From Escherichia phage ST0: a DNA stretch of 64,000 nucleotides. The notes under the pieces are model-generated. The model had not been told where the DNA came from and did not search any database. It saw nothing but the letters and a program-made list of their open reading frames with translations. Where the stretch lies: sequence record MF044457, one strand, 5' to 3'. The position numbers and the translations under genes were made by a program. Shown one piece after another: positions 154-30,635 of the stretch (position 1 is its first letter; each line of letters opens with the position of its first letter).

Positions 154-789
154 ATGAAAACTACTCCTATTACTATCGCTATTGACGCAATCATAAAACA
201 AGCTTCTTCTTTGGCCGCTATGGCCAAAGTAATTAGTCAAAACCCTGCTCGTTATAATGCTATTCTAGAAACTCTTCGACGCCCAGGACTTAGTAATTAT
301 GAAAGCCGAGTAATTATTACAGGTGTTGGTAAGAATGCTAATATTGCAACTAAAGCTTCTGAGACATTTGCTTCACTCGGTATCCCGAGTATGTACTTGA
401 ACACCGGGCATTATTCTCACGGTGATGCAGGATTCATTGCGCCTAATGATGTGTTGATTCATATTAGTCGTTCTGGTAAAACTGAAGAAATGATAGGCGT
501 GGCTAAGCATCTTAAAATGATTCGTCCGAACGTCAAACAGATTCTGTTGCATTGTAACCCAGACATTCCACAAGAAAATGAAGCCCTTTTTGATTACTCT
601 TTCTGTACAGGCATCGCAGTAGAGGTTGATGAGAATTCTCTGGCTCCGACCATGTCCACTACATTGTTGTTAGCGCTTATCGATACTTTTGCTATCAACC
701 TTTCGTCTGAGCGTGGATTTACCTCTAATGACTTCCTTAAGTTCCACCCTGGTGGTGCACTAGGTGCCATGTTACGAGGCGAACAATGA
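154..789 (+). CDS. SIS-domain sugar-phosphate isomerase, KdsD/GutQ-like arabinose-5-phosphate isomerase without CBS domains
   Basis: ORF track 211 aa. Motifs typical of the KdsD/KpsF SIS domain: GVGKNANIATK, SHGDAGFI, ISRSGKT, APTMSTT, FHPGGALG. RBS GAGAG upstream. Confidence 0.8.
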   Translation: MKTTPITIAIDAIIKQASSLAAMAKVISQNPARYNAILETLRRPGLSNYESRVIITGVGKNANIATKASETFASLGIPSMYLNTGHYSHGDAGFIAPNDVLIHISRSGKTEEMIGVAKHLKMIRPNVKQILLHCNPDIPQENEALFDYSFCTGIAVEVDENSLAPTMSTTLLLALIDTFAINLSSERGFTSNDFLKFHPGGALGAMLRGEQ

Positions 790-929
790 AAGCAATAACA
801 ATAGGACTTTTACTATTGATGCTTATCATGACTATCTACTGGAGCTTAACGGCTCCGGTAATGATTCCGACTCTTATAATCGGATGGATTATGATTGGAC
901 TACAAGCAAAGTATGAATGCTTTAACTAG
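786..929 (+). CDS. small hydrophobic protein, 47 aa, below ORF-track size cutoff
   Basis: ATG at 786 overlaps the stop of the preceding gene (ATGA). Translation MKAITIGLLLLMLIMTIYWSLTAPVMIPTLIIGWIMIGLQAKYECFN is almost entirely hydrophobic. Confidence 0.35.
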   Translation: MKAITIGLLLLMLIMTIYWSLTAPVMIPTLIIGWIMIGLQAKYECFN

Positions 930-970
930 AATAGTGTACAATACTCCTACTTACCAATGAGGACCACAAT

Positions 971-2656
971 ATGAAAAAAGCTGTTATTCTTGGTGCTGGA
1001 CTGGCAACTCGTTTGTATCCAATAACGCATCATATTCCTAAGGTGCTTGTTAACTATAAACAAGACACTATTCTGAGCAATTTGTATACAATTTATTCTG
1101 ACCTTGGTGCAGACGAAATTATTGTAGTAGTTCATTCAAAATTTGCTGAAACTGTTCGAGCTTATTGTGAGCAAGAAGGGTTCAATGTGACTATTCGTAC
1201 AGTTGATGAAGCATATGGTTCTGCTTATGCTCTTGCTAAATTGCACAAAGATTTAGACGGCCATAATGTAATTGTTAACTGGTGTGATATTATTCCCGAT
1301 TTTGGTTCATGGTCTTGGAATGTTAACGCAATCTATGTTAAGGGTGACGAATGTCGATATAATTTCGACGGTGAAAATATCACTAACGTAGGTTCAACAG
1401 GTGGTAATGTTGTAGGAATTTATCAGTTCAAAGACTGGGAATTCTATATGGGTTCTACTGATGAGGAAATTCATGAATACTGCAAAGGACGTGATTTCGT
1501 AGAATTCCTTTACGGCAGCGCATTCAATAAATCAGAGCTTATGAATCTAATTGATTTAGGTGATATGCCTAAACTTGAAAAAGCTCATGAAGTTCGTGAA
1601 CTTAATCGTAGTTTTAATGCAGTTGAAATCGGTGAAGAAACTGTAACTAAATTCGCATTAACCGAACAGGGCCGAGCTCTTCAGAAAGATGAGATTTCAT
1701 GGTATCTTAAAGTGAAATCAGATTCAGTTCCTCAGTTAGTTTCTGTTAATGAAAATAACTTTGAAATGGAACGCATTAAAGGTAAGCCAGCATTTGAATA
1801 TATTAAATCCAAATCGAGTCTTGCTCGTCCACAAATTGTTGATGCAATTTTAGATGCACTGAAATTCAGCACAGACACTTATTTTGTAAGTCCTGAAACT
1901 GTTCGCCGTGATTTCACTAAAGAGTTCTATACGAAAGTTATTGATCGTTGTGAAAGTATTCAACCATTGATTGATTCATTCGGTAAAATCACACATGTGA
2001 ACTACACTAAGATTGGACGTCTGAAGCCAATGTTGAAACAAGCTTTAGAACACCTTATTCGTTATCATAACCGTTCTCAGGGACAGTACTCTGTTATTCA
2101 TGGTGACCCGAACTTCAGTAATACTATGATTACTGATAATGGTGAAGTCAAGTTTATCGACCCTCGTGGATATTTTGGTGAAACCAAGATTTACGGGCCA
2201 AAATTGTATGATGAAGCTAAAGTGCTTTATGCTGTTTCAGGTTATGATGAATTCAACGCTAATCCGACCTGGGGGCAATTTACTATTGATGAAACAACTT
2301 GTAATGTGACTATTAACATCAATCCATTAGTTTACAAATATGGAAAGATGAGTTCGTTTAACGAGTATCATCATTTGGCAGTTGCAATTATCTGGATTGC
2401 ATTAGGCGGTTATTTCAAGAATAATCCACTTAAAGCGGTAGCCGCATATTATAAAGGTATGGAACTTCTGACTAAGCAATTACGCAACATGGGCCGTGTA
2501 CTTCAGGACGGCTCTATTAGTTATGACGTAGCAGAACCTGTAACGGCTACTCTGATTACAAAAAATCCTGGTAAATGGGTACTAACTGATAAAGAAACTG
2601 GTGTTTCCTATCGTCCAATCGGTGGCGATATCACTCATCAATGGGAACGAATCTAA
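971..2656 (+). CDS. bifunctional sugar-1-phosphate nucleotidyltransferase (N-terminal) / sugar kinase of the choline-kinase/APH fold (C-terminal)
   Basis: ORF track 561 aa. N-terminus ILGAGLATRL is the G-x-G-x-R loop of LicC/RmlA-type nucleotidyltransferases. C-terminal half has HGDPNFSNTMI and FIDPRG, resembling the catalytic loop and DFG-like motif of LicA/APH kinases. RBS GAGGA. Confidence 0.8.
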   Translation: MKKAVILGAGLATRLYPITHHIPKVLVNYKQDTILSNLYTIYSDLGADEIIVVVHSKFAETVRAYCEQEGFNVTIRTVDEAYGSAYALAKLHKDLDGHNVIVNWCDIIPDFGSWSWNVNAIYVKGDECRYNFDGENITNVGSTGGNVVGIYQFKDWEFYMGSTDEEIHEYCKGRDFVEFLYGSAFNKSELMNLIDLGDMPKLEKAHEVRELNRSFNAVEIGEETVTKFALTEQGRALQKDEISWYLKVKSDSVPQLVSVNENNFEMERIKGKPAFEYIKSKSSLARPQIVDAILDALKFSTDTYFVSPETVRRDFTKEFYTKVIDRCESIQPLIDSFGKITHVNYTKIGRLKPMLKQALEHLIRYHNRSQGQYSVIHGDPNFSNTMITDNGEVKFIDPRGYFGETKIYGPKLYDEAKVLYAVSGYDEFNANPTWGQFTIDETTCNVTININPLVYKYGKMSSFNEYHHLAVAIIWIALGGYFKNNPLKAVAAYYKGMELLTKQLRNMGRVLQDGSISYDVAEPVTATLITKNPGKWVLTDKETGVSYRPIGGDITHQWERI

Positions 2657-3042
2657 TGCACCGTGTAGAAAACATGCTTAATCTTTGTTTTGATGTCGAT
2701 GATTGTATAACAGAGTGGAATAACAATCGTGATTACGTGAACTTCAAACCAGACGTCGAAATGGTGTCTGCCATTAATGCCCTGTATGATGCAGGGCATA
2801 CCATAACGCTTTACACTGCTCGCGGTATGAAGTCAGTAGGCCCTGGTCGTATAGCAATTGACATTCTCCCAAGTCTGATTCAGAACTTGGCAAACATTGG
2901 ATTGAAGTACCATAATTTGCTAACACATAAACCAGTATATGATTGGATTATCGACGACAAAGCTATGCGTCCTGACGAATTCAAAGCTCTTATGAATAAA
3001 GGCGAATTCGAAACATTTAAATCATATAAACCGAATCTATAA
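2656..3042 (+). CDS. HAD-superfamily phosphatase-like protein
   Basis: ORF track 2641..3042; start moved to ATG at 2656 overlapping the upstream stop (TAATG). Motif I-like FDVDDC near the N-terminus, T in LYTAR, K in THKP, IIDDK motif IV-like. Confidence 0.6.
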   Translation: MHRVENMLNLCFDVDDCITEWNNNRDYVNFKPDVEMVSAINALYDAGHTITLYTARGMKSVGPGRIAIDILPSLIQNLANIGLKYHNLLTHKPVYDWIIDDKAMRPDEFKALMNKGEFETFKSYKPNL

Positions 3043-3096
3043 TAATTTAAGTAAGACCTGCAAAAACCATCGCAACAATTAACGCGAGATGCAAAA

Positions 3097-4257
3097 ATGA
3101 ATACCTTTAAAATCGGAACGAATTTTGATTTAGCTCTTCTTGATAAAATCGTAGAGCTCAATAAAACTTATCCTAATAGCTTGATAAACGAAGTATACGG
3201 CTCTACAAGAGAAATGGCTTTTGTAGCAGCCAGACCTGATTTTAGGCTTCCTGACGTTGACAAAAAGATGTTAGAAGATTACGTTAAACGTTGTAACGAA
3301 TTAGGTATTTGCTTTAACTATACACTCAACACGATAAATCCTGGTTCAAAAAGAGAACTAGTTGAGTGGAAGAAGAAAGCTATTCAGGATTATGTTCAGT
3401 ATCTTTGGTCAATAGGCGTATGGCGTATTACTATCGCTAACCCTGTTGTTATGGAAATTGTTCGTGAAGTCAATAAAGACATTGAGATTGAAGTTTCAAC
3501 AATTCTACATGTCGATGCTGTAACTCAAATCAAATACTTGCATGACCAATATAATATCAAAAAGGTCTGCTGCGGAATTCATAAGAACCGTTCAGTTTCT
3601 TTCCTGAAGCGTGCAGCAGAGTTTTGTAATAAGAACAATATAATATTTGAAGTTCTTGTAAATGAGTTCTGTTCTAATGCTGGTAAAGGGTATACAACAC
3701 ATTGTAGTTATCGTGACTCTTGCTATATTTTCCATAGCACCGATGTTACAGTAGATGATGCCAAATCTTTAAATGGATATCCAATGCAACATTGTATTAA
3801 AGCTCGTGATACAGATCCATTTAACTGGTTGAGAACTCGTTTTGTTCGTCCTCAAGATTTGAAACTTTATAATGATATTGGTATCACTCAATTCAAAGTT
3901 TCAGGACGTACAGGTAGCACAGACTACATTTTGAAAGTTCTTGAAGCTTATGCTTCTGAAAAGTTTGAAGGTAATTTGTTGGAATTGTGGAAGCCTTTAG
4001 AGACCATTTTCACTCTTGAAAATGAGACTGAGTTTTCACATACGGTAAATATTGAAACCTCTTTGTTAGATGGCTTTTTAGAAAAAAGGTGGTTCAGACA
4101 TCCAGATTTCGATTGTGCTAATGAAATCTGCGGGACGACGTGTACATATTGTGAAAGATATTATAAACGTCAATTATCTAAAAACGGGTTAGCAGAAAAC
4201 TCTATATCTATTATTGATATAACTAACTCTGATGACGCTTTGAGGTACCCGGAATGA
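3097..4257 (+). CDS. Cys-rich protein with U32-family-like signature, function unknown
   Basis: ORF track 386 aa. EVLVNEFCSNAGKGYTTHCSYRDSC resembles the U32 family signature (E-x-F-x2-G-x-x-C...C-x-x-S); C-terminal CANEICGTTCTYC cluster. Confidence 0.55.
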   Translation: MNTFKIGTNFDLALLDKIVELNKTYPNSLINEVYGSTREMAFVAARPDFRLPDVDKKMLEDYVKRCNELGICFNYTLNTINPGSKRELVEWKKKAIQDYVQYLWSIGVWRITIANPVVMEIVREVNKDIEIEVSTILHVDAVTQIKYLHDQYNIKKVCCGIHKNRSVSFLKRAAEFCNKNNIIFEVLVNEFCSNAGKGYTTHCSYRDSCYIFHSTDVTVDDAKSLNGYPMQHCIKARDTDPFNWLRTRFVRPQDLKLYNDIGITQFKVSGRTGSTDYILKVLEAYASEKFEGNLLELWKPLETIFTLENETEFSHTVNIETSLLDGFLEKRWFRHPDFDCANEICGTTCTYCERYYKRQLSKNGLAENSISIIDITNSDDALRYPE

Positions 4258-4397
4258 TTTCTAGAAAAACTTTTAACCACCAACTTAACGAAGAGATTTT
4301 GACTATGAAAATTAACAGCAACGAACAAATTCTTAAAAAGGCCCTAATGGGCCTGTTTGAAACTAAAGCGGCTAAAGTGATTAAAGAACCTGTTTAA
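4254..4397 (+). CDS. small ORF, 47 aa, below ORF-track cutoff
   Basis: ATG overlaps the stop of the preceding gene (ATGA); translation MISRKTFNHQLNEEILTMKINSNEQILKKALMGLFETKAAKVIKEPV. Confidence 0.25.
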   Translation: MISRKTFNHQLNEEILTMKINSNEQILKKALMGLFETKAAKVIKEPV

Positions 4398-4535
4398 TTG
4401 GAATACTACGCTGATGCATTTCTTCATAGTGTTCTTGGAAGTATCGATGCTGAAGCTTTACGTTATATCAACATTGTCAAGAAATTCAAATAAGCTTTAC
4501 GAATTGAGTATATAATAAATTGTATTGAGGTAAAC

Positions 4536-5252
4536 ATGGGAAAACATAACACAATGAAATATATCAAAGCCGCAGATTTTCAAACCGCATTTAAAGCAGT
4601 CAATCGTGAAATTTTAGAAAACCCGGAATTCGTAACTGATTCTCGTATTGGACGTTGTAATGAAATTGGGTCTATGACAGTAGTTGTTGACACTCCGTCA
4701 TCATTCAAAATGACTGACCCACGTATTAACCGCATCTCTTATGAATATGCCGAAGACTTCTGGAAGTTTATGATTTCTGGTGGTACCAACGCAGAAGAAG
4801 CGTTTAAGGCATATCCTAATGTCGCTAAATTTATTTCTAAACCAAAATCAGATGTTTTGCCGGCGAACTTCAACACTTTCTATGGTCCTCGCATTGTGGC
4901 CCAATTACCAGCTCTTCTAAAAGAACTTAAAGAGAAGCCTAACTCTCGAAGAGTTGTGTTCCAAATTCTAGAAAGTTCTGATCAGGCTTTGCTTGATTCG
5001 GACGAAACACTTGAATATCCATGTACTGACTCAGTGACTTATTATATTCGCGATGGTAAGCTTTATACCCACTGTCATATGCGTTCTCAGAACTGTGCTG
5101 TTGTTATGCAGTTGGATTTTTATCTCCAAGGAAAATTACTTCATTATATCGCTAACGAATGTGGTGTAGAAGTTGGTGATTATACTCATACCATGGTAAG
5201 TGCCCATGTGTTTGAACGTGATTTTGATTATGTTAAAGGATTCCTTGACTAA
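4536..5252 (+). CDS. 42: thymidylate-synthase-fold pyrimidine hydroxymethylase, gene 42 (dCMP hydroxymethylase) position
   Basis: ORF track 238 aa. NSRRVVFQI, YPCTDSVTYYIRDGK and HMRSQNCAV parallel the SRR, catalytic Cys and MRSND regions I recall for T4 gp42, but overall divergent. RBS GAGGT. Confidence 0.7.
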   Translation: MGKHNTMKYIKAADFQTAFKAVNREILENPEFVTDSRIGRCNEIGSMTVVVDTPSSFKMTDPRINRISYEYAEDFWKFMISGGTNAEEAFKAYPNVAKFISKPKSDVLPANFNTFYGPRIVAQLPALLKELKEKPNSRRVVFQILESSDQALLDSDETLEYPCTDSVTYYIRDGKLYTHCHMRSQNCAVVMQLDFYLQGKLLHYIANECGVEVGDYTHTMVSAHVFERDFDYVKGFLD

Positions 5253-6151
5253 TGGCTATTTTCCGCGTACCTATCTTGAGTATGCGGTCTTATGAAACTG
5301 GACAGTATGCTATCCTTAAGGATGGCAACTTCCAACTTCATTTGCACCGTGCTAATCCGGGTGATGTGATTACATATCCACGTAATGCATCTGATATTAA
5401 AGAATGTGAACGTCTTTTCCCAGAATTTAAGTTTGTTCCATTATGGTATAAAGATAACGCGTATAACACTCGTAAATATTTCTGGTCTGAAAATGAATTT
5501 GTGGTTGATTCATTAATTGCTTATTATGATTGTGATTTTCTAATCACAGATATCACTGGATACGACGGCGCTTTTGACGTAGAATTCAATTTCAATATCA
5601 CTGCAGACCCTAATAAACCACGTTTTTATATTGACGAATTCTTAAAAACCGATATGTTGTCGGTTAATCGTTCACTTCAAACTACCGTGTTGAATAAACG
5701 TCAAAAGGAAGTGCTGGTTAACGCTGGTGCAGATGGTAATAAGATTATCGTAACGCAGAAAGTTATACGTCCTTCCATCATGCAGCGTCTTGTAGGTGAT
5801 TTGGCTCCTATTCATCTAGATGGTATTTTTCATCCATTTCGAATTAGTGACCCGTGCTATCGTTTTGAACAAGTGGTTGAATGTGCAATTCAATTAGGCC
5901 AACCGCTTTATATAACCGATCCAAATAATAGCTTCGACAGAAATAAGTATCCTGAAGAAGCGCTGATTCGAATTTTTAAACCAACTAAAACTGAGTACTA
6001 TCAAATTCTTAAAGGACGGCCGAAGATTCAATATTTCGAAAATCCTGAAGAAGTATTCCATCCAGGTCTTGGTGAGTTCATCTACTTTAATGCTTTAATT
6101 TCTTCACCGTATAATATACCTAAATACGAAGATGTCGTAATCGAGGAATAA
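5252..6151 (+). CDS. hypothetical protein at the beta-glucosyltransferase locus
   Basis: ORF track 299 aa; start overlaps the stop of the hydroxymethylase gene by 1 nt. No motif recognised. Confidence 0.5.
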   Translation: MAIFRVPILSMRSYETGQYAILKDGNFQLHLHRANPGDVITYPRNASDIKECERLFPEFKFVPLWYKDNAYNTRKYFWSENEFVVDSLIAYYDCDFLITDITGYDGAFDVEFNFNITADPNKPRFYIDEFLKTDMLSVNRSLQTTVLNKRQKEVLVNAGADGNKIIVTQKVIRPSIMQRLVGDLAPIHLDGIFHPFRISDPCYRFEQVVECAIQLGQPLYITDPNNSFDRNKYPEEALIRIFKPTKTEYYQILKGRPKIQYFENPEEVFHPGLGEFIYFNALISSPYNIPKYEDVVIEE

Positions 6152-6152
6152 A

Positions 6153-6701
6153 ATGGCTAAAATTATTTTAGTAGATGGCCCAGATAATGCTGGTAAAACA
6201 ACTTTCATTAATGACATAATGGAAATTAGTGAAAGATATGTAAAGATTGATTTCCCTAAACGAACAGTTGATGGACGTTTCGATGTTAAGTCTCGAAATG
6301 AAGTTGGCTGTTTCGAAACGATGTTGAATTATTTAGACCCTACTAAGATTTATCTGTTAGACCGTGGATATATTAGTAACTGGGTTTATGGACGTATTCG
6401 ACAAGATGCGGACTCGGTTCTTGACGTTTATGAACAGGATTATGTTCGTCTTTGCCAAAACCATGATGTGTTCACAATTATTTTAACACGTAACGAAATG
6501 ACTGAAAGTTTTGAAGACGATCTTATTACTTTGTCTTCATTCGGTTTTAATACAGTCATTTCATATTTTGAAGAGTTTGCAATTCATAACAAAATCCAAA
6601 CGTATCAATTACTTAATCATGACGGTGCTAACAAAGTTATAGGATTTAATGCAAGCGAACGTAATTATTTGATTACAGAAATTATCAAATGGGCTCGTTA
6701 A
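6153..6701 (+). CDS. P-loop NTPase, small nucleotide/sugar-kinase-like
   Basis: ORF track 182 aa; Walker A GPDNAGKTT at residues 9-17; starts 1 nt after the upstream stop. Confidence 0.6.
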   Translation: MAKIILVDGPDNAGKTTFINDIMEISERYVKIDFPKRTVDGRFDVKSRNEVGCFETMLNYLDPTKIYLLDRGYISNWVYGRIRQDADSVLDVYEQDYVRLCQNHDVFTIILTRNEMTESFEDDLITLSSFGFNTVISYFEEFAIHNKIQTYQLLNHDGANKVIGFNASERNYLITEIIKWAR

Positions 6702-25155: not shown

Positions 25156-26973
25156 ATGATTAAAAATGAAATTAAGGTATTGTCAGATGTAGAACATATT
25201 AAGAAACGCAGTGGCATGTATATTGGTTCTTCGGCCAAAGAAGCCCACGAGCGTTTTTTGTTTGGTAAATATCAACAAGTTGAATATGTTCCTGGTCTGG
25301 TTAAATTAATCGATGAGATTATTGACAACTCGGTTGATGAAGCTATTCGTACATCATTTAAGTTTGCAAATAAAATCGATGTGCAAATTAAAAATAATCA
25401 AGTTTCGGTGGAAGATAACGGACGTGGTATTCCTCAAGCAATGGTCACCGACCAAAATGGTGAACAGATTCCAGGTCCTGTAGCTGCCTGGACTATTCCA
25501 AAGGCCGGTGGTAACTTTGGTGATGACTCTGAACGTAAGACCGGTGGTATGAACGGCGTCGGGAGTAGTTTAACTAATATCTTCTCTACGTTGTTTACAG
25601 GCATAACGTCAGATGGCGAAAATGAAATCACTGTTAACTGTTCAAACGGGATGGAAAACAAATCATGGTCTTCTAAGAAATCTAAAGGTAAAGGCACTAA
25701 AGTAATCTTCACTCCTGATTTCTCTTCATTTGAAGAGCATAATTTATCTCAAATTTATTTAGATATTACTTTAGACCGACTTCAAACGTTGGCAGTCGTT
25801 TATCCTGATATCAAGTTCACATTTAATGGTAAAAAGGTTGACGGTAATTTTAAACGATTTGCTAAACAATTTGGCGAAGATAACATCATTCAAGAAAATG
25901 ATAAAGTCTCTATAGCATTCACAACATCACCAGACGGCTTCCGTCATTTAACTTATGTGAATAACATCCATACTAAAAATGGTGGTCATCATGTTGAATG
26001 TGTAATGGATGATATCTGCGAACATCTTTTGCCCGGCATTAAAAAGAAATATAAGGGTATTGAAGTCACTAAAGCTCGTGTTAAAGAATGTCTCACAATG
26101 TTGATGTTTATTAGAGACATGAGCAACATGCGTTTTGATTCTCAGACTAAAGAACGTTTAACGTCAACGTATGGTGATATTCGTAATCATATCCAATTAG
26201 ATGCTAAGAAAATTGCTCAGGCACTTCTTAAAAACGAAGCCTTGATTATGCCTATTGTTGAAGCAGCATTAGCTCGTAAATTGGCAGCAGAAAAGGCTGC
26301 AGAAACTAAAGCAGCTAAAAAGGCAACTAAAGCTAAGGTTCATAAGCATATTAAAGCTAACCAATGTGGTAAAGATGCAGATACGACATTGTTTTTAACA
26401 GAAGGTGATTCGGCAATTGGTTATCTCATTGATGTTCGTGACCGTGAACTACACGGTGGATTCCCATTACGTGGTAAGGTGATGAATAGCTGGGGTATGA
26501 CATATGCTGATATGATGAAGAACAAAGAGCTCTTTGATATCTGTGCTATCACAGGTCTTATTCTTGGTGAAAAGGCAGAGAATACGAACTATCGTAATAT
26601 TGCAATTATGACCGATGCCGATCATGACGGTCTTGGAAGTATTTATCCGGCTTTGCTTGCTTTCTTTAGTAATTGGCCTGAATTGTTTGAACAAGGACGT
26701 ATTCGCTTTGTTAAAACGCCTGTAATTATTGCACAAATTGGCAAAACTCAAAAATGGTTTTATACTGTAGCTGAGTATGAAGAAGCTAAAGATACACTAC
26801 CTAAGCATAGTATTCGATACATCAAGGGATTAGGCTCCCTTGAAAAGTCAGAATATCGTGAAATGATTCAGAACCCTGTGTACGACGTAGTTAAACTTCC
26901 TGAAAATTGGAAAGAACTCTTTGAAATGTTGTTGGGTGATGATTCAGAACTTCGTAAAGAATGGATGTCCTAA
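25156..26973 (+). CDS. 39: DNA topoisomerase II large subunit, genes 39 and 60 fused in one ORF
   Basis: 605 aa; N-terminal GHKL ATPase (LSDVEHIKKRSGMYIGS, IDNSVDEA); C-terminal 130 aa match remembered T4 gp60 (IAIMTDADHDGLGSIYP...KLPENWKELFEMLLGD). Confidence 0.95.
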   Translation: MIKNEIKVLSDVEHIKKRSGMYIGSSAKEAHERFLFGKYQQVEYVPGLVKLIDEIIDNSVDEAIRTSFKFANKIDVQIKNNQVSVEDNGRGIPQAMVTDQNGEQIPGPVAAWTIPKAGGNFGDDSERKTGGMNGVGSSLTNIFSTLFTGITSDGENEITVNCSNGMENKSWSSKKSKGKGTKVIFTPDFSSFEEHNLSQIYLDITLDRLQTLAVVYPDIKFTFNGKKVDGNFKRFAKQFGEDNIIQENDKVSIAFTTSPDGFRHLTYVNNIHTKNGGHHVECVMDDICEHLLPGIKKKYKGIEVTKARVKECLTMLMFIRDMSNMRFDSQTKERLTSTYGDIRNHIQLDAKKIAQALLKNEALIMPIVEAALARKLAAEKAAETKAAKKATKAKVHKHIKANQCGKDADTTLFLTEGDSAIGYLIDVRDRELHGGFPLRGKVMNSWGMTYADMMKNKELFDICAITGLILGEKAENTNYRNIAIMTDADHDGLGSIYPALLAFFSNWPELFEQGRIRFVKTPVIIAQIGKTQKWFYTVAEYEEAKDTLPKHSIRYIKGLGSLEKSEYREMIQNPVYDVVKLPENWKELFEMLLGDDSELRKEWMS

Positions 26974-26988
26974 GCTCCTTCTGGAGCT
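26973..26988 (+). terminator. hairpin after gene 39/60
   Basis: AGCTCC-TTCT-GGAGCT followed by TTCATTTTAATTTT. Confidence 0.5.
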
Positions 26989-27015
26989 TCATTTTAATTT
27001 TAATAAGGCTTAATT

Positions 27016-28116
27016 ATGAAAGTTATGTTTATCCCATCTCGTGCAGTCCCATTTAATCCTGACCGTGTACAAGGTGGCCTTGAAGCAGTACATTTAAATG
27101 TGTTGAAATATCTTGTGTCCATCGGTGCTGATATTGATTATATCGGCTTTGATAATGACACGTTTGGTGACTGGAAAGTTACACACCATCCTGTTGGTCA
27201 TCTGACTAAATTCAGTCTAGGTATGAGTTATACTATGGCTCGTAAGATTGTTGAACTAGCCGACATCCATGAATACGATTTTGTTGTTACTATGGAACCG
27301 ACTAAACTAACCGTTCAGGCAATTAAAGACGCAGGTCTCTCTAAAGTTCATAAGAATTTTATGGCAACACCATTTGAACCGGTATCTCGTGGCATTGTTC
27401 AAATTTGGGACCAGACTATTCAAATTCATAAGAATGGTGGTAAGAGTTATGCTCCTACTAAAGCCTTCCGTGAATTTGAACGTAAATATTGCCATATGAC
27501 TTCAGCTCTGACTGACAAAATTGATTATGATTATTGGCGAGCAAATCCGTTGTTTGAAGCCGAAGATTATCCGGTTATTTGTTTGAATGAGAAACCTGAA
27601 GTTCTTCCAGCGACTGATCTGATTATTAGTGCACAACGTTATGACACTAAAATGCGTCGTACTGATGTTGCTCTTGAAGCAATTAAAGCACTAGGCGAAA
27701 ATGGTATTGGTTATTGTCCTAGTAAATGGGCACCACCAGCTAAATATCCTGTTATTATTGATGCTCCACACAGTGAAATCATGGAACGTCTTAAAACAGC
27801 TAAAGCACTTATTAATACGTGTCCTGACACAGGTACGGTAGAGAATAGTTCTATTGAAGCCATCTCTAAAGGTGTCCCTGTAATCCAGTTAGCTTTTAAG
27901 GATTATCCTCATGCGACATTCGAATACGACCCAGATACTGTGCGTGTCGAAATTGATTCCTCTACTCCTAAGAAAGAAGTAGTTGCGCTTTACACAAAAG
28001 CTGTATTAGAATTCACTGACACATACGAAGCTCGAGTTAAACGTGCTGAAGCAGTATGGAAGAAGTATAATCGAGATGCAGTTGTTGCGATGTGGGATAA
28101 AATCTTCACAGCGTAA
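27016..28116 (+). CDS. GT-B-fold glycosyltransferase-like protein (candidate DNA hmC glycosyltransferase)
   Basis: 366 aa; C-terminal ENSSIEAISKGVPVI resembles the E-x-x-x-x-EA...G-x-PVI donor-binding motif of GT4-type GT-B enzymes. Lies between 39/60 and rIIA. Confidence 0.65.
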   Translation: MKVMFIPSRAVPFNPDRVQGGLEAVHLNVLKYLVSIGADIDYIGFDNDTFGDWKVTHHPVGHLTKFSLGMSYTMARKIVELADIHEYDFVVTMEPTKLTVQAIKDAGLSKVHKNFMATPFEPVSRGIVQIWDQTIQIHKNGGKSYAPTKAFREFERKYCHMTSALTDKIDYDYWRANPLFEAEDYPVICLNEKPEVLPATDLIISAQRYDTKMRRTDVALEAIKALGENGIGYCPSKWAPPAKYPVIIDAPHSEIMERLKTAKALINTCPDTGTVENSSIEAISKGVPVIQLAFKDYPHATFEYDPDTVRVEIDSSTPKKEVVALYTKAVLEFTDTYEARVKRAEAVWKKYNRDAVVAMWDKIFTA

Positions 28117-28208
28117 ATCCTGAATAGCCTGAGGCACTATTACACATAAGATGATAAATTATATGGTCTTTAGTAATAGTGCCCTAGGAATCTACTGAAG
28201 AGAATATT

Positions 28209-28409
28209 ATGAGAACATATAACGTGGACTTGGACCTTTTTGATAAAGCGGTGCTCCGGGAATTCCGGCTTATCCAAAGATTTTTTGATATCGAATCAGC
28301 TGAAGCCTTTAAAGAACGCTTTAAGGAAATTCGATATAAAATACAAACCGATACAGCTACTAAAGAAGAACTTCTTGAAGTAGCAGAAATTTTTAAACGT
28401 AACTTGTGA
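28209..28409 (+). CDS. hypothetical small protein (rIIA.1 position)
   Basis: ORF track 66 aa. Confidence 0.4.
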   Translation: MRTYNVDLDLFDKAVLREFRLIQRFFDIESAEAFKERFKEIRYKIQTDTATKEELLEVAEIFKRNL

Positions 28410-28421
28410 TGAGAGAAAAAT

Positions 28422-30635
28422 ATGATTATTGAAACGGCTAAAGAAACGATTATTGGTTCAGGCGGTAAGAGCACAGCATTTACTATTCAAGGCAATAGCA
28501 AAGTTTATAAGATTTTGTCTAATGACCTTTATACAAACAAAGAATTGGCTTGTGTACGTGAATTAATCACAAACTGTATCGATGGCCAAATTCTTAATGG
28601 TTGCACTGATAAGTTTATTGTTCAGGCTCCAGGTCGTTTAGACCCACGTTTTGTAGTTCGTGATTTTGGACCTGGTATGAGTGATTTCACTATTCGTGGT
28701 AATGACGAAGAGCCAGGAATTTATAACTCATATTTTGCTTCAACTAAAACATCGAGTAACGATTTCATTGGTGGATTCGGACTCGGCTCTAAAGCTCCAT
28801 TAGCATATACTGATACGTTTAACCTTACGTCTTATCATAATGGTGAAGTTCGTGGTTACGTAATCTACCAAGATGACACAGGTCCACAGATTAAGCCGAC
28901 CTTTGTAGATAAGATGGGTCCTGATGACCGTACGGGTGTAGAAGTAGTTGTACCGGTTAACCCGGAAGATTTTGAAAAGTTTGCATCCGAAATTGCATAT
29001 GTTATGCGTCCTCTAGGTGATATTGCAGAAGTTCGTGGTGTTAAAGATATTAAATACTTCCCAGAATTTGATGATGTATATTTGGCCAAGGAAGCTCCAT
29101 GGGGTGAACGTGGTAATATCATGGCTGTTTATGGCGGTATTGTATATCCAATCGGAAGTGTTATTAAAGAACAAACATGGATGATGACACGATGCACTAC
29201 AGCTTATATTAAATTCCCAATGGGTGAACTAGATGTTGCTCCGTCTCGCGAAGCATTGTCATTTGATAAACGTACAGTAGCAAATATCCATAAACGCGTT
29301 GCAGAAATCGATGCTAAATTGTTCGCTGAAGATTCTAAGAAATGGATTGATTGTAAATACCCACGACATGTGTTCCGCGAAATTGATTCTCTTGGCTATA
29401 CCGCTCGTAAATACATGGAAAAGGCCGGGTCTAATATTGAATCACTGAAATACTCTAAAGAACAACTAACCTATTCTGAGTTGTACAAACGTTTTAAAAT
29501 GGGACCTGAGTGGTGTAATCTTGGTGTCGTATACGATATCGTTGAATCCCCTCGTCTTCGTCGTATTCGTGAAAGTGGTAGCTCATCATCAACCATTTCA
29601 ATTAACAGCCTGATTGGCATTAACATTAAAAACGTTGAAATTGTTATTGACGATGTTAAGGGACGCGTTCCATTAATGCGAGCTCTTAATTCAATTGAAA
29701 TGTCTAAAGACGAGGTTAAATTATCCGGTAAAGTTCCACGCGGTTTTGGTAAAAGCGTACTATTCGTTGACCCTACAGACGAAGATGCAATGAAACTTCT
29801 GGAACGCCTTAAAGTTATCTTTGATGGCGACAACATTAACATATACAAGACTTCAGAGCTTTTACAAATCGTTAAGCCATGGATTGAAGTCAGGAAACGG
29901 ACTAATGAGCCTCGTCCTAAATCCCCGAGTGCTCATCGATTCTTTAAGAATGAAAACGATGTTTGGGTATCAGAAGACCTCTTTATTCCGGCAAGTGAAG
30001 CAGATGAAATCCAAGGTTATGCTATAGTTCGTAATCGTTCTAATGCTGAATGTCTTGACGCAGATAAAGGTTGGTTGAACTATGACTCCAATTTCTTGAC
30101 CCGTATTGCTGATTTGTCAGGTATTAAAGAGTTCACTGTAGTTCGTCCACAGATTGCTAAGAAAGTTCGTAAACTTGGTGAAGTAGAATGCTTGTTCGAA
30201 AAATCAATTAATGACTATATTACGCTAATTGATAAAGTGGATTATGATGAGTATGTATCACCAAGTCGTAGAGCACAGCCTTATTTGAATCATATTACTC
30301 GTAACGAAGAGCTTAACTTCCTTAGTAAGTATTTTAGCTCTAAGAACAAAGAAATCAGTAAAGACTTTGCAAAACTCTCAACAGTAAATAATCGTTGGGG
30401 ATGGAATCGATTCGCAGGTGCTACTAATACAGACCTGAATAAGAAGTTAGAATTGTGTGCTAAAATTTTCGATAAGCTTAAAGATAATGCTTACGATAAT
30501 GATGATAAAATGGTTATTGAATTCGAAACCAATTATCATATTGTGTCAGAATACATGGGACGACGTGGTACTCTTTCCAAAGAACAGGTCGCTCAAATCG
30601 TTAAATTCATGAAGGCCGTGGAAGCGGCCAAATAA
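28422..30635 (+). CDS. rIIA: rIIA protein
   Basis: 737 aa; N-terminus MIIETAKETIIGSGGKS... and GHKL-like ELITNCIDG match remembered T4 rIIA. Confidence 0.9.
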   Translation: MIIETAKETIIGSGGKSTAFTIQGNSKVYKILSNDLYTNKELACVRELITNCIDGQILNGCTDKFIVQAPGRLDPRFVVRDFGPGMSDFTIRGNDEEPGIYNSYFASTKTSSNDFIGGFGLGSKAPLAYTDTFNLTSYHNGEVRGYVIYQDDTGPQIKPTFVDKMGPDDRTGVEVVVPVNPEDFEKFASEIAYVMRPLGDIAEVRGVKDIKYFPEFDDVYLAKEAPWGERGNIMAVYGGIVYPIGSVIKEQTWMMTRCTTAYIKFPMGELDVAPSREALSFDKRTVANIHKRVAEIDAKLFAEDSKKWIDCKYPRHVFREIDSLGYTARKYMEKAGSNIESLKYSKEQLTYSELYKRFKMGPEWCNLGVVYDIVESPRLRRIRESGSSSSTISINSLIGINIKNVEIVIDDVKGRVPLMRALNSIEMSKDEVKLSGKVPRGFGKSVLFVDPTDEDAMKLLERLKVIFDGDNINIYKTSELLQIVKPWIEVRKRTNEPRPKSPSAHRFFKNENDVWVSEDLFIPASEADEIQGYAIVRNRSNAECLDADKGWLNYDSNFLTRIADLSGIKEFTVVRPQIAKKVRKLGEVECLFEKSINDYITLIDKVDYDEYVSPSRRAQPYLNHITRNEELNFLSKYFSSKNKEISKDFAKLSTVNNRWGWNRFAGATNTDLNKKLELCAKIFDKLKDNAYDNDDKMVIEFETNYHIVSEYMGRRGTLSKEQVAQIVKFMKAVEAAK

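Follow-up and report, generated by a model that had tools for sequence, protein, structure and literature searches.

In the 64,000 nucleotides from Escherichia phage ST0 (sequence record MF044457) that were analysed here and are called the window below, an open reading frame (ORF) on the plus strand at 27016..28116 starts with ATG and encodes a protein of 366 residues. It lies between gene 39/60 and rIIA, about 20 kb from a cassette of genes for an arabinose donor, and an original prediction made from the sequence alone had singled it out as a candidate glycosyltransferase (GT) that puts the sugar of the cassette onto DNA; the exact extent of the ORF, its position and its distance from the cassette were all borne out. 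By megablast the window falls in the genus Mosigvirus (RB69-like), with phage HX01 as top match (98.7%), and a 2.1-kb query that included the target gene was covered to 80% or more by 152 records. The target gene is certainly coding, as about 154 Mosigvirus records contain orthologues (95-99.5% identity) and 55 Acinetobacter phage records contain homologues (about 43%). The gene and the core of its most conserved block are the following.

27016..28116, plus strand: GT-B glycosyltransferase of 366 residues, orthologue of RB69 ORF003c/gp3 and of the HY126 glycosyltransferase (from identity, AlphaFold2 and Foldseek)
27841..27885, plus strand: codons for residues 276-290, ENSSIEAISKGVPVI, core of the most conserved block of the family (NTC..TGTVE..S.EA...G...Q)

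The protein is 98% identical to RB69 ORF003c (RB69p003, gp3; 359 of 366 residues), about 99% identical to the glycosyltransferase chain of phage HY126 (PDB 9IQZ and 9IR0) and 99% identical to bas47_0105 of Bas47, which is annotated as 'putative hmC-arabinosyltransferase' (hmC, 5-hydroxymethylcytosine). The 4-7 substitutions that distinguish it from these proteins affect none of the family-invariant positions, and D83 and A294 are peculiar to phage ST0. Homology over the full length extends to DLP2 047 and 048, with 43% and 41% identity, respectively. The two HY126 structures, of the apo form (9IQZ) and under the title 'phage HY126 glycosyltransferase with UDP' (9IR0; UDP, uridine diphosphate), were both released on 2025-07-16. 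They are reportedly the work of He et al. (2026, Nat Chem Biol). The target is in this sense already known, as it was a candidate in 2018, a crystal structure of its orthologue with UDP dates from 2025 and it has a place in a published pathway. RB69 ORF003c was the best arabinosyltransferase candidate by hidden Markov model (HMM) and HHpred searches (Thomas et al., 2018), RB69p003 was later proposed as 'β-arabinosyltransferase 2' (PMC13326640), and a third paper reported that Bas46 from which the arabinosyltransferase Aat had been deleted is susceptible to a plasmid-borne defence. The HY126 glycosyltransferase, RB69 gp3 and Aat of Bas46 and Bas47 are practically the same protein, encoded at the same position between 39 and rIIA.1 and accompanied by the same pathway genes. 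Mahler et al. (2025, Cell Host Microbe) reportedly use Aat as the name of the arabinose-5ara-hC transferases responsible for the second and the third sugar.

An AlphaFold2 model of the target, built on a 12-sequence alignment, has a mean predicted local distance difference test score (pLDDT) of 91.2 and a predicted template-modelling score (pTM) of 0.87, and contains the two Rossmann-like α/β domains and the interdomain cleft by which the GT-B fold is defined. In Foldseek searches the model matched 9IR0 and 9IQZ with a template-modelling (TM) score of 0.95-0.97 and 99% identity, and the next matches were GT4-type GT-B enzymes at E of about 1e-11, i.e., tetrahydrobiopterin glucosyltransferase, PimA, BshA, MshA and WaaG. 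Because the fold matches that of GT-B enzymes and the orthologue structure 9IR0 contains UDP, the target is, on the strength of the model, a GT-B nucleotide-sugar transferase whose orthologue binds UDP. Together with the 98-99% identity to RB69 gp3 and the HY126 enzyme this confirms that the gene was rightly called a glycosyltransferase gene, and the lack of a GT fold, which the original prediction had named as the outcome that would speak against it, was not what the model gave.

Family profiles give a different picture from the fold. Pfam returned no family for the target protein at E<=10 and NCBIfam no match, the proposed HMM search against Glycos_transf_1/GT4 was likewise without a match to the protein, which by its sequence belongs neither to CAZy GT4 nor to Pfam Glycos_transf_1 (PF00534), and PHROGs assigned it only to the family phrog_8302 of 'unknown function'. 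A profile of the target family, searched against the sequences in PDB, retrieved its own crystal structure only and no other glycosyltransferase, and among 12 family members the sole Pfam match was PF20706 (GT4-conflict), seen in 2 members at E=0.0028. Identity to the bacterial GT4-type retaining enzymes PimA (2GEJ), BshA (3MBO/6N1X) and MshA (3C4Q) is 11-15%, as it is to sucrose-phosphate synthase (6KIH) and the tetrahydrobiopterin (BH4) glucosyltransferase (5ZER/9V0L), and the target differs from the bacterial GT4-type enzymes in the silence of the Glycos_transf_1 HMM, in having E-x4-E for EX7E, in an acceptor that is borne on DNA and in a product that is β according to the literature. The stretch ENSSIEAISKGVPVI, in which a GT4-like donor-binding motif had been recognised, does lie in the most conserved block of the family, where N267, T268, C269, G273, T274, E276, S279, E281, A282, G286 and Q291 are invariant in 12 homologues down to 35% identity; the likeness to GT4/Glycos_transf_1 is, going by the model, real only at the level of the fold, and the HMMs of Pfam and NCBIfam (no match in either) lend it no support.

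Modification begins with the base, and here the window contains a gene that differs in telling positions from its counterpart in T4.

4536..5252, plus strand: ThyA homologue, predicted 5-hydroxy-deoxycytidine monophosphate (5-hydroxy-dCMP) synthase (Pfam Thymidylat_synt; D169N and N177D)

Around ThyA positions 169-177 the aligned sequences are QRSCDVFLGLPFN in Escherichia coli ThyA, MRSNDVVFGFRND in T4 gp42 and MRSQNCAVVMQLD in the homologue in the window, which thus has N at position 169 and D at position 177, whereas gp42, the dCMP hydroxymethylase of T4, keeps D169. 5-Hydroxy-dCMP synthases are marked by D169N (Lee et al., NAR 2026, PMC13326640), and activity has been demonstrated for the RB69 orthologue (PMC13326640). 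Three PDB entries (9iqc, 9ir2, and 9iqu), numbered close to those of the glycosyltransferase, are near-identical to the homologue in the window. In RB69 DNA, tandem mass spectrometry and nuclear magnetic resonance revealed α-D-Araf and β-D-Araf-(1->3)-α-D-Araf (Araf, arabinofuranose) ether-linked to 5-hydroxycytosine (5hoC; PMC13326640), arabinosyl-5-hydroxycytosine was found in both RB69 and NP DNA (PMC13326640, PMC13390438), and the Durham Collection paper gives a ratio of mono- to di-arabinose of 1:4 for the Mosigvirus NP and calls the earlier assignment of hmC in RB69 erroneous. Because of the D169N and N177D exchanges, taken with the chemistry of RB69 and NP DNA, the acceptor base is, as read from the sequence, 5-hydroxycytosine and not hmC; the original prediction had assumed the latter, the acceptor of the T4-type glucosyltransferases, and the D169N signature speaks against it.

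The ThyA homologue is part of the arabinose cassette, which spans 154..6701 and is followed by uvsX. The other genes of the cassette are these.

154..789, plus strand: SIS-domain arabinose-5-phosphate isomerase, RB69 gp55-like, first step of donor synthesis (Pfam SIS; PMC13326640)
971..2656, plus strand: bifunctional nucleotidyltransferase/kinase, AfhE-like, RB69 gp52:53 (Pfam NTP_transferase and weak matches to kinase families)
2641..3042, plus strand: small phosphatase, AfhF-like, RB69 gp51 (62% identity to DLP2 043; no match in Pfam)
3097..4257, plus strand: peptidase-U32-like protein of 386 residues, RB69 gp50-like (Pfam Peptidase_U32)
5252..6151, plus strand: second GT-B-fold protein, 299 residues, RB69 gp46:47 orthologue, candidate first (base-proximal) arabinosyltransferase (AlphaFold2, Foldseek, synteny)
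6153..6701, plus strand: nucleotide kinase, RB69 gp45-like, last cassette gene before uvsX (PMC13326640, Table 1)

The cassette had been thought to end at 4257; it continues with 4536..5252, 5252..6151, and 6153..6701, and the 278 bp between the U32-like gene and the ThyA homologue (4258..4535) contain no ORF of at least 80 residues. The AfhE-like enzyme makes UDP-arabinofuranose (PMC13326640, citing He et al., 2026), the AfhF-like phosphatase converts Araf-1,5-P2 to Araf-1-P (PMC13326640), and the U32-like protein is listed as 'sugar or heterocycle reductase' (PMC13326640, Table 1). DLP2 has every cassette gene except a counterpart of the U32-like gene, the product of which had no BLAST match among the eleven DLP2 proteins of the cassette and its flanks (locus L001).

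The protein encoded at 5252..6151 bears directly on the role of the target. Its AlphaFold2 model (pLDDT 94) matched UDP-N-acetylglucosamine (UDP-GlcNAc) 2-epimerases, MshA and other GT-B proteins at E of about 1e-6, while no match was found in Pfam, no solved relative in PDB and no detection by any HMM library. The gene follows directly after the ThyA homologue and is syntenic with β-gt of T4, where the order is 43, imm.1, imm, 42, β-gt, segA, uvsX, 40, and 41, and RB69 gp46:47 was proposed as the initiating arabinosyltransferase (Lee et al., PMC13326640). A candidate first transferase therefore lies inside the cassette, and the separation of donor synthesis from transfer, on which the original prediction had laid stress, does not hold. 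That the target is the transferase for the cassette sugar stands in so far as it is a DNA glycosyltransferase tied to an arabinose cassette, but it has to share this part with the second GT-B protein. The 5252..6151 ORF is intact in the window and in about 180 database members, and is split into gp46 and gp47 in the RB69 reference; that it is intact elsewhere agrees with the claim that a sequencing error produced the split.

The two GT-B families differ in their distribution among phages. The target family was matched by tblastn in 210 phage records, in Mosigvirus and Acinetobacter T4-like phages only, so that it is not, as had been named as a possible objection, a protein conserved in glucosylating T-even phages; the isolate genomes with this family all belong to one of these two groups, both of which carry the cassette. 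The 5252..6151 family was matched in 347 phage records from many genera, including Mosigvirus, Dhakavirus (CLBP2 and also JS98), phages of Klebsiella, Edwardsiella, Yersinia, Pectobacterium, Serratia (LC53), Proteus, Pseudomonas, Shewanella (Thanatos-1), and Acinetobacter. In a wider protein database the latter family has more than 137 clusters, and an exhaustive HMMER search for the target family among 1.84 billion representative proteins gave 15 matches, 8 of them strong. No tblastn match to the target family was found in Thanatos or in phages of Serratia, Yersinia, and Klebsiella, and Serratia phages LC53 and 92A1 have the cassette and lack the target family. One copy is present in Mosigvirus (95-99.5% identity) and two tandem copies in Acinetobacter T4-like phages, including DLP3 and Maestro (about 43%). 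The record OZ038340.1, labelled 'Tegunavirus sp. BRC001', also encodes the Acinetobacter-type enzyme in two copies (noted at 144099..145217), with 92.5% identity to DLP2 047; from its sequence this is probably an Acinetobacter T4-like phage under a wrong label.

When these copy numbers are set beside the known DNA chemistry, Thanatos has no copy and is mono-arabinosylated, with one pentose and a single arabinosyltransferase (PMC13326640), RB69, NP, Bas46, and Bas47 have one copy and both mono- and di-arabinose in their DNA, and DLP3 has two copies and up to three arabinoses; Maestro, also with two copies, is listed only as containing arabinosylated 5-hydroxydeoxycytidine (5hodC). In vitro DLP3 gp76 and gp77 together add a further arabinose from UDP-Araf onto RB69 DNA that is already arabinosylated, and have no activity on bare 5hoC DNA (PMC13326640). 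DLP3 gp77 and gp76, the β-arabinosyltransferases 2 and 3, belong to the family of the target and have its conserved block; they are likened to it here, at 41-43% identity, via their DLP2 orthologues 047 and 048. The DLP3 and DLP2 pair stands in tandem within the cassette and is jointly responsible for the third arabinose, whereas the Mosigvirus gene is single and 20 kb away.

Because the copy number tracks the number of sugars, and because the DLP3 paralogues act on arabinosylated and not on 5hoC DNA, the target is assigned to chain extension, i.e., by analogy we infer that it performs the second rather than the first transfer. It is very probable that the protein is a DNA arabinosyltransferase of the Mosigvirus arabinosyl-5-hydroxycytosine pathway (RB69 gp3, HY126, 'Aat'), and that it acts as a chain extender. 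For this reading the GT-B fold, the identity with a UDP-bound crystal structure, the orthology with RB69 gp3 and the phyletic pattern come from the present analysis, and the chemistry of base and linkage as well as the in vitro DNA activity of the Acinetobacter paralogues come from the literature. The use of UDP-arabinofuranose by the target is supported indirectly, by the presence of UDP in 9IR0 and by the use of UDP-Araf by the DLP3 paralogues. In the proposed sequence of events, deoxycytidine would first be replaced by 5-hydroxydeoxycytidine through the action of the ThyA homologue (4536..5252), UDP-D-arabinofuranose would be supplied by the genes at 154..3042, and the cassette glycosyltransferase (5252..6151) would place the first α-arabinofuranose on the 5-hydroxyl. 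The cleft that separates the two Rossmann-like domains of the target enzyme would then receive UDP-Araf, and the enzyme would link a second arabinofuranose to the first to give β-D-Araf-(1->3)-α-D-Araf-5-O-cytosine in DNA, and the outcome would be a thicker sugar coat that blocks host defences targeting DNA.

The same pattern makes it improbable that the target is instead the sole or first transferase, which would put arabinose directly onto the modified cytosine and leave 5252..6151 to do something else. Such a role, which the original prediction had assumed and which was proposed for RB69 ORF003c in 2018, would agree with the choice of ORF003c as best candidate by HMM and HHpred (Thomas et al., 2018), with the annotation of the Bas47 protein, with the existence of a UDP crystal structure for the target orthologue and none for the cassette protein, and with the UDP-GlcNAc 2-epimerases, which are not transferases, among the top Foldseek matches of 5252..6151. 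However, there are DNA-arabinosylating phages without the target family (Thanatos-1, and Serratia LC53 and 92A1 with the cassette only), the copy number of the target follows the number of extra sugars, the Acinetobacter paralogues work on arabinosylated DNA and not on 5hoC DNA, and it is the cassette protein that is universal and occupies the β-gt slot of T4.

Several observations weigh against the target being a chain extender. The EX7E motif, as it is established for GT4 enzymes, is not kept in the target family, where the second glutamate is E281 (in IEAIS) and the position eight residues upstream is taken by the invariant G273; in its place the family carries an invariant E276-x4-E281. 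The close structural neighbours of the target are all retaining enzymes, yet the first linkage is α and the second β. The correlation between copy number and sugars is drawn from a handful of phages with known DNA chemistry, the role given to RB69 gp3 is explicitly a proposal (PMC13326640), and the DLP3 enzymes are inactive singly (PMC13326640). From the retaining-type folds and the succession of α and β linkages it follows that one of the two phage enzymes must deviate from what the fold leads one to expect. It is conceivable, although unlikely, that the target is such a stereochemical outlier, a GT4-like scaffold making a β-(1->3) link, and at the same time a portable module for chain length. 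If so, inversion must take place on a 'retaining-type' GT-B scaffold in one of the phage enzymes, or else the donor of this enzyme is an unusual anomer, and E276-x4-E281 in place of EX7E could be the cause of the deviation; phages would then gain or lose the target gene and in this way tune the number of arabinoses on their DNA.

The inactivity of the single DLP3 enzymes also raises the question of whether the target can work only in company with the cassette glycosyltransferase, the two forming a heteromer or being otherwise strictly coupled, and so has a share in both additions. DLP3 gp76 and gp77 were each inactive alone, the third arabinose needed both, and the individual enzymes were without activity on 5hoC DNA (PMC13326640). 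Against this, the HY126 protein was crystallised alone and bound UDP, Mosigvirus has a single copy, the target family is encoded away from the cassette enzyme both in Mosigvirus and in relatives from metagenomes, and mono-arabinosylating phages use the cassette enzyme alone, so that an obligate partnership appears very improbable. It is hardly credible that the acceptor of the target is not DNA but, for example, a protein, a small molecule or a glycan of the host envelope, and that the enzyme occurs together with the cassette by coincidence: the nearest structural relatives do act on lipids, thiol cofactors, sugars, and lipopolysaccharide, the target adjoins the membrane-related rIIA/rIIB and distant metagenomic homologues stand among structural genes, but the isolates with the target family all carry the arabinosyl-5hoC cassette, the family is found inside this cassette in Acinetobacter phages and the paralogues have been shown to modify DNA (PMC13326640).

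As a probable chain-extending DNA arabinosyltransferase the target stands apart from the glucosyltransferases of T4. Its family has no profile kinship with the T4 β-GT (GT63; hhalign probability 0.2%), and it is not a sequence homologue of either this enzyme or the T4 α-GT (GT72, PDB 1XV5/1Y6F). The T4 enzymes transfer from UDP-glucose to the hydroxymethyl group of hmC, whereas the target would by analogy use UDP-arabinofuranose and most likely a sugar hydroxyl on arabinosyl-5-hydroxycytosine. In function the β-α-glucosyltransferase of T2 and T6, which extends glucose to gentiobiose, would be closer to the target than the T4 glycosyltransferases are.

The order of genes around the target is conserved in Mosigvirus. 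On its left lies the gene for the topoisomerase II large subunit (25156..26973, 605 residues), and on its right an rIIA.1-like ORF (28209..28409, 66 residues) is followed by rIIA (28422..30635) and then rIIB. The RB69 annotation gives the same order (rIIA, rIIA.1, RB69ORF003c, 39), as does that of Bas47/AlbertHofmann. At the matching site T4 has 39, mobA, 60.1, 60, rIIA.1, and rIIA, with no gene intervening between 60 and rIIA.1, and the target gene is therefore an insertion relative to T4, in agreement with the remark that T4 has only small ORFs here. The topoisomerase gene at 25156..26973 is a single 39/60 fusion as in RB69, and is without the mobA/60.1 split and the gene-60 translational bypass of T4. 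Between it and the target gene there is one further feature.

26972..26989, plus strand: terminator-like hairpin, directly after the stop codon of gene 39/60 and 27 nt 5' of the ATG of the glycosyltransferase gene (terminator scan)

The PhAPEC2 record carries a 'terminator' annotation at the place matching this hairpin. Sigma-70-type promoters near the target gene numbered 13 with 14 expected by chance, none of them convincing, and the T4 late-promoter box TATAAATA was not found near the gene. As there is no promoter consensus between the hairpin and the start of the glycosyltransferase gene, the latter is probably read through from gene 39 in early or middle transcription, which is what would be expected for a DNA-modification enzyme. 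Between the target gene and the rIIA.1-like ORF, the spacer of 92 nt (28117..28208) forms a long stable stem-loop with the core stem GGCACUAUUA / UAAUAGUGCC (ΔG -30 kcal/mol, z = -4.2, a stability reached by 0 of 200 shuffles), possibly a regulatory element, a site of processing or a terminator that lacks a T-run.

Two records depart from the usual state of the gene. In Shigella phage JK45 (MK962757.1, locus L006) a tandem partial duplication is present at 1794..2204, where an extra ORF of 136 residues immediately follows the full-length copy and matches residues 237-366, the UDP-binding C-terminal block, at 99% identity; the record is classed as Tequatrovirus, yet its target-gene region is of the Mosigvirus type. 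In Escherichia phage LH01 (PP434429.1, 2523..3619) the orthologue is in two pieces, annotated as two coding sequences for a 'hypothetical protein', and its span falls 1 nt short of 1098. A frameshift, either a natural knock-out or a sequencing error, is possible, and if it is a natural knock-out LH01 is predicted to have DNA with mono-arabinose only.

With regard to the origin of the target gene, the cassette of DLP2 includes the homologues 047 and 048, which come next after the kinase gene, in the place where Mosigvirus has uvsX. Identities between the window and DLP2 are as follows.

Arabinose-5-phosphate isomerase (154..789 with DLP2 041, 'arabinose 5-phosphate isomerase'): 58%
AfhE-like enzyme: 56%
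Phosphatase: 62%
ThyA homologue: 69%
Cassette glycosyltransferase: 46%
Kinase (6153..6701 with DLP2 046, 'putative thymidylate kinase'): 46%
Target: 43% and 41%
Helicase gp41: 58%

By these figures the divergence of the target is on a par with that of the fast-evolving glycosyltransferase and kinase of the cassette, which makes its history compatible with co-inheritance followed by relocation. DLP2 047 and 048 are 57% identical to each other, and their duplication is therefore placed after the split from the Mosigvirus lineage. The notion that the two phage transferases are recent paralogues was rejected, as no profile kinship was found between the target family and the cassette glycosyltransferase family (hhalign probability 0.5%); the two therefore come from different GT-B lineages. 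Two distant metagenomic homologues with 35-39% identity were found in other surroundings, one among large structural genes beside a DPBB_1-domain protein (L003, 8001..9140) and one after a DNA ligase and a DsbA-like gene on a T4-like contig (L004, 3040..4224). The sequence evidence suggests that the target gene is portable and moves as a single-gene module. No compositional sign of recent horizontal acquisition was seen, as the GC content of its 1-kb bin is 0.39 in a window that ranges from 0.33 to 0.43, and HMMER found no large bacterial parent family among the 1.84 billion representative proteins. Independent acquisition of the target gene, which the original prediction had read out of its distance from the cassette, is possible but is not demonstrated, with the Acinetobacter homologues standing in the cassette and the divergence similar to that of the cassette glycosyltransferase and kinase.

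The case illustrates that a reading of sequence alone can recognise a highly diverged glycosyltransferase that escapes HMMs, although it missed the transferase of the cassette itself. The chemistry on which the interpretation draws was revised to 5-hydroxycytosine in 2025-2026, and the phenotype of the Bas46 deletion had already been reported. For RB69-like phages the target gene helps to set the density of the arabinose coat on their DNA. This coat decides which restriction, CRISPR, and glycosylase defences are escaped or triggered, and is as such of interest for phage therapy and for enzymatic tools that handle glycosylated DNA.

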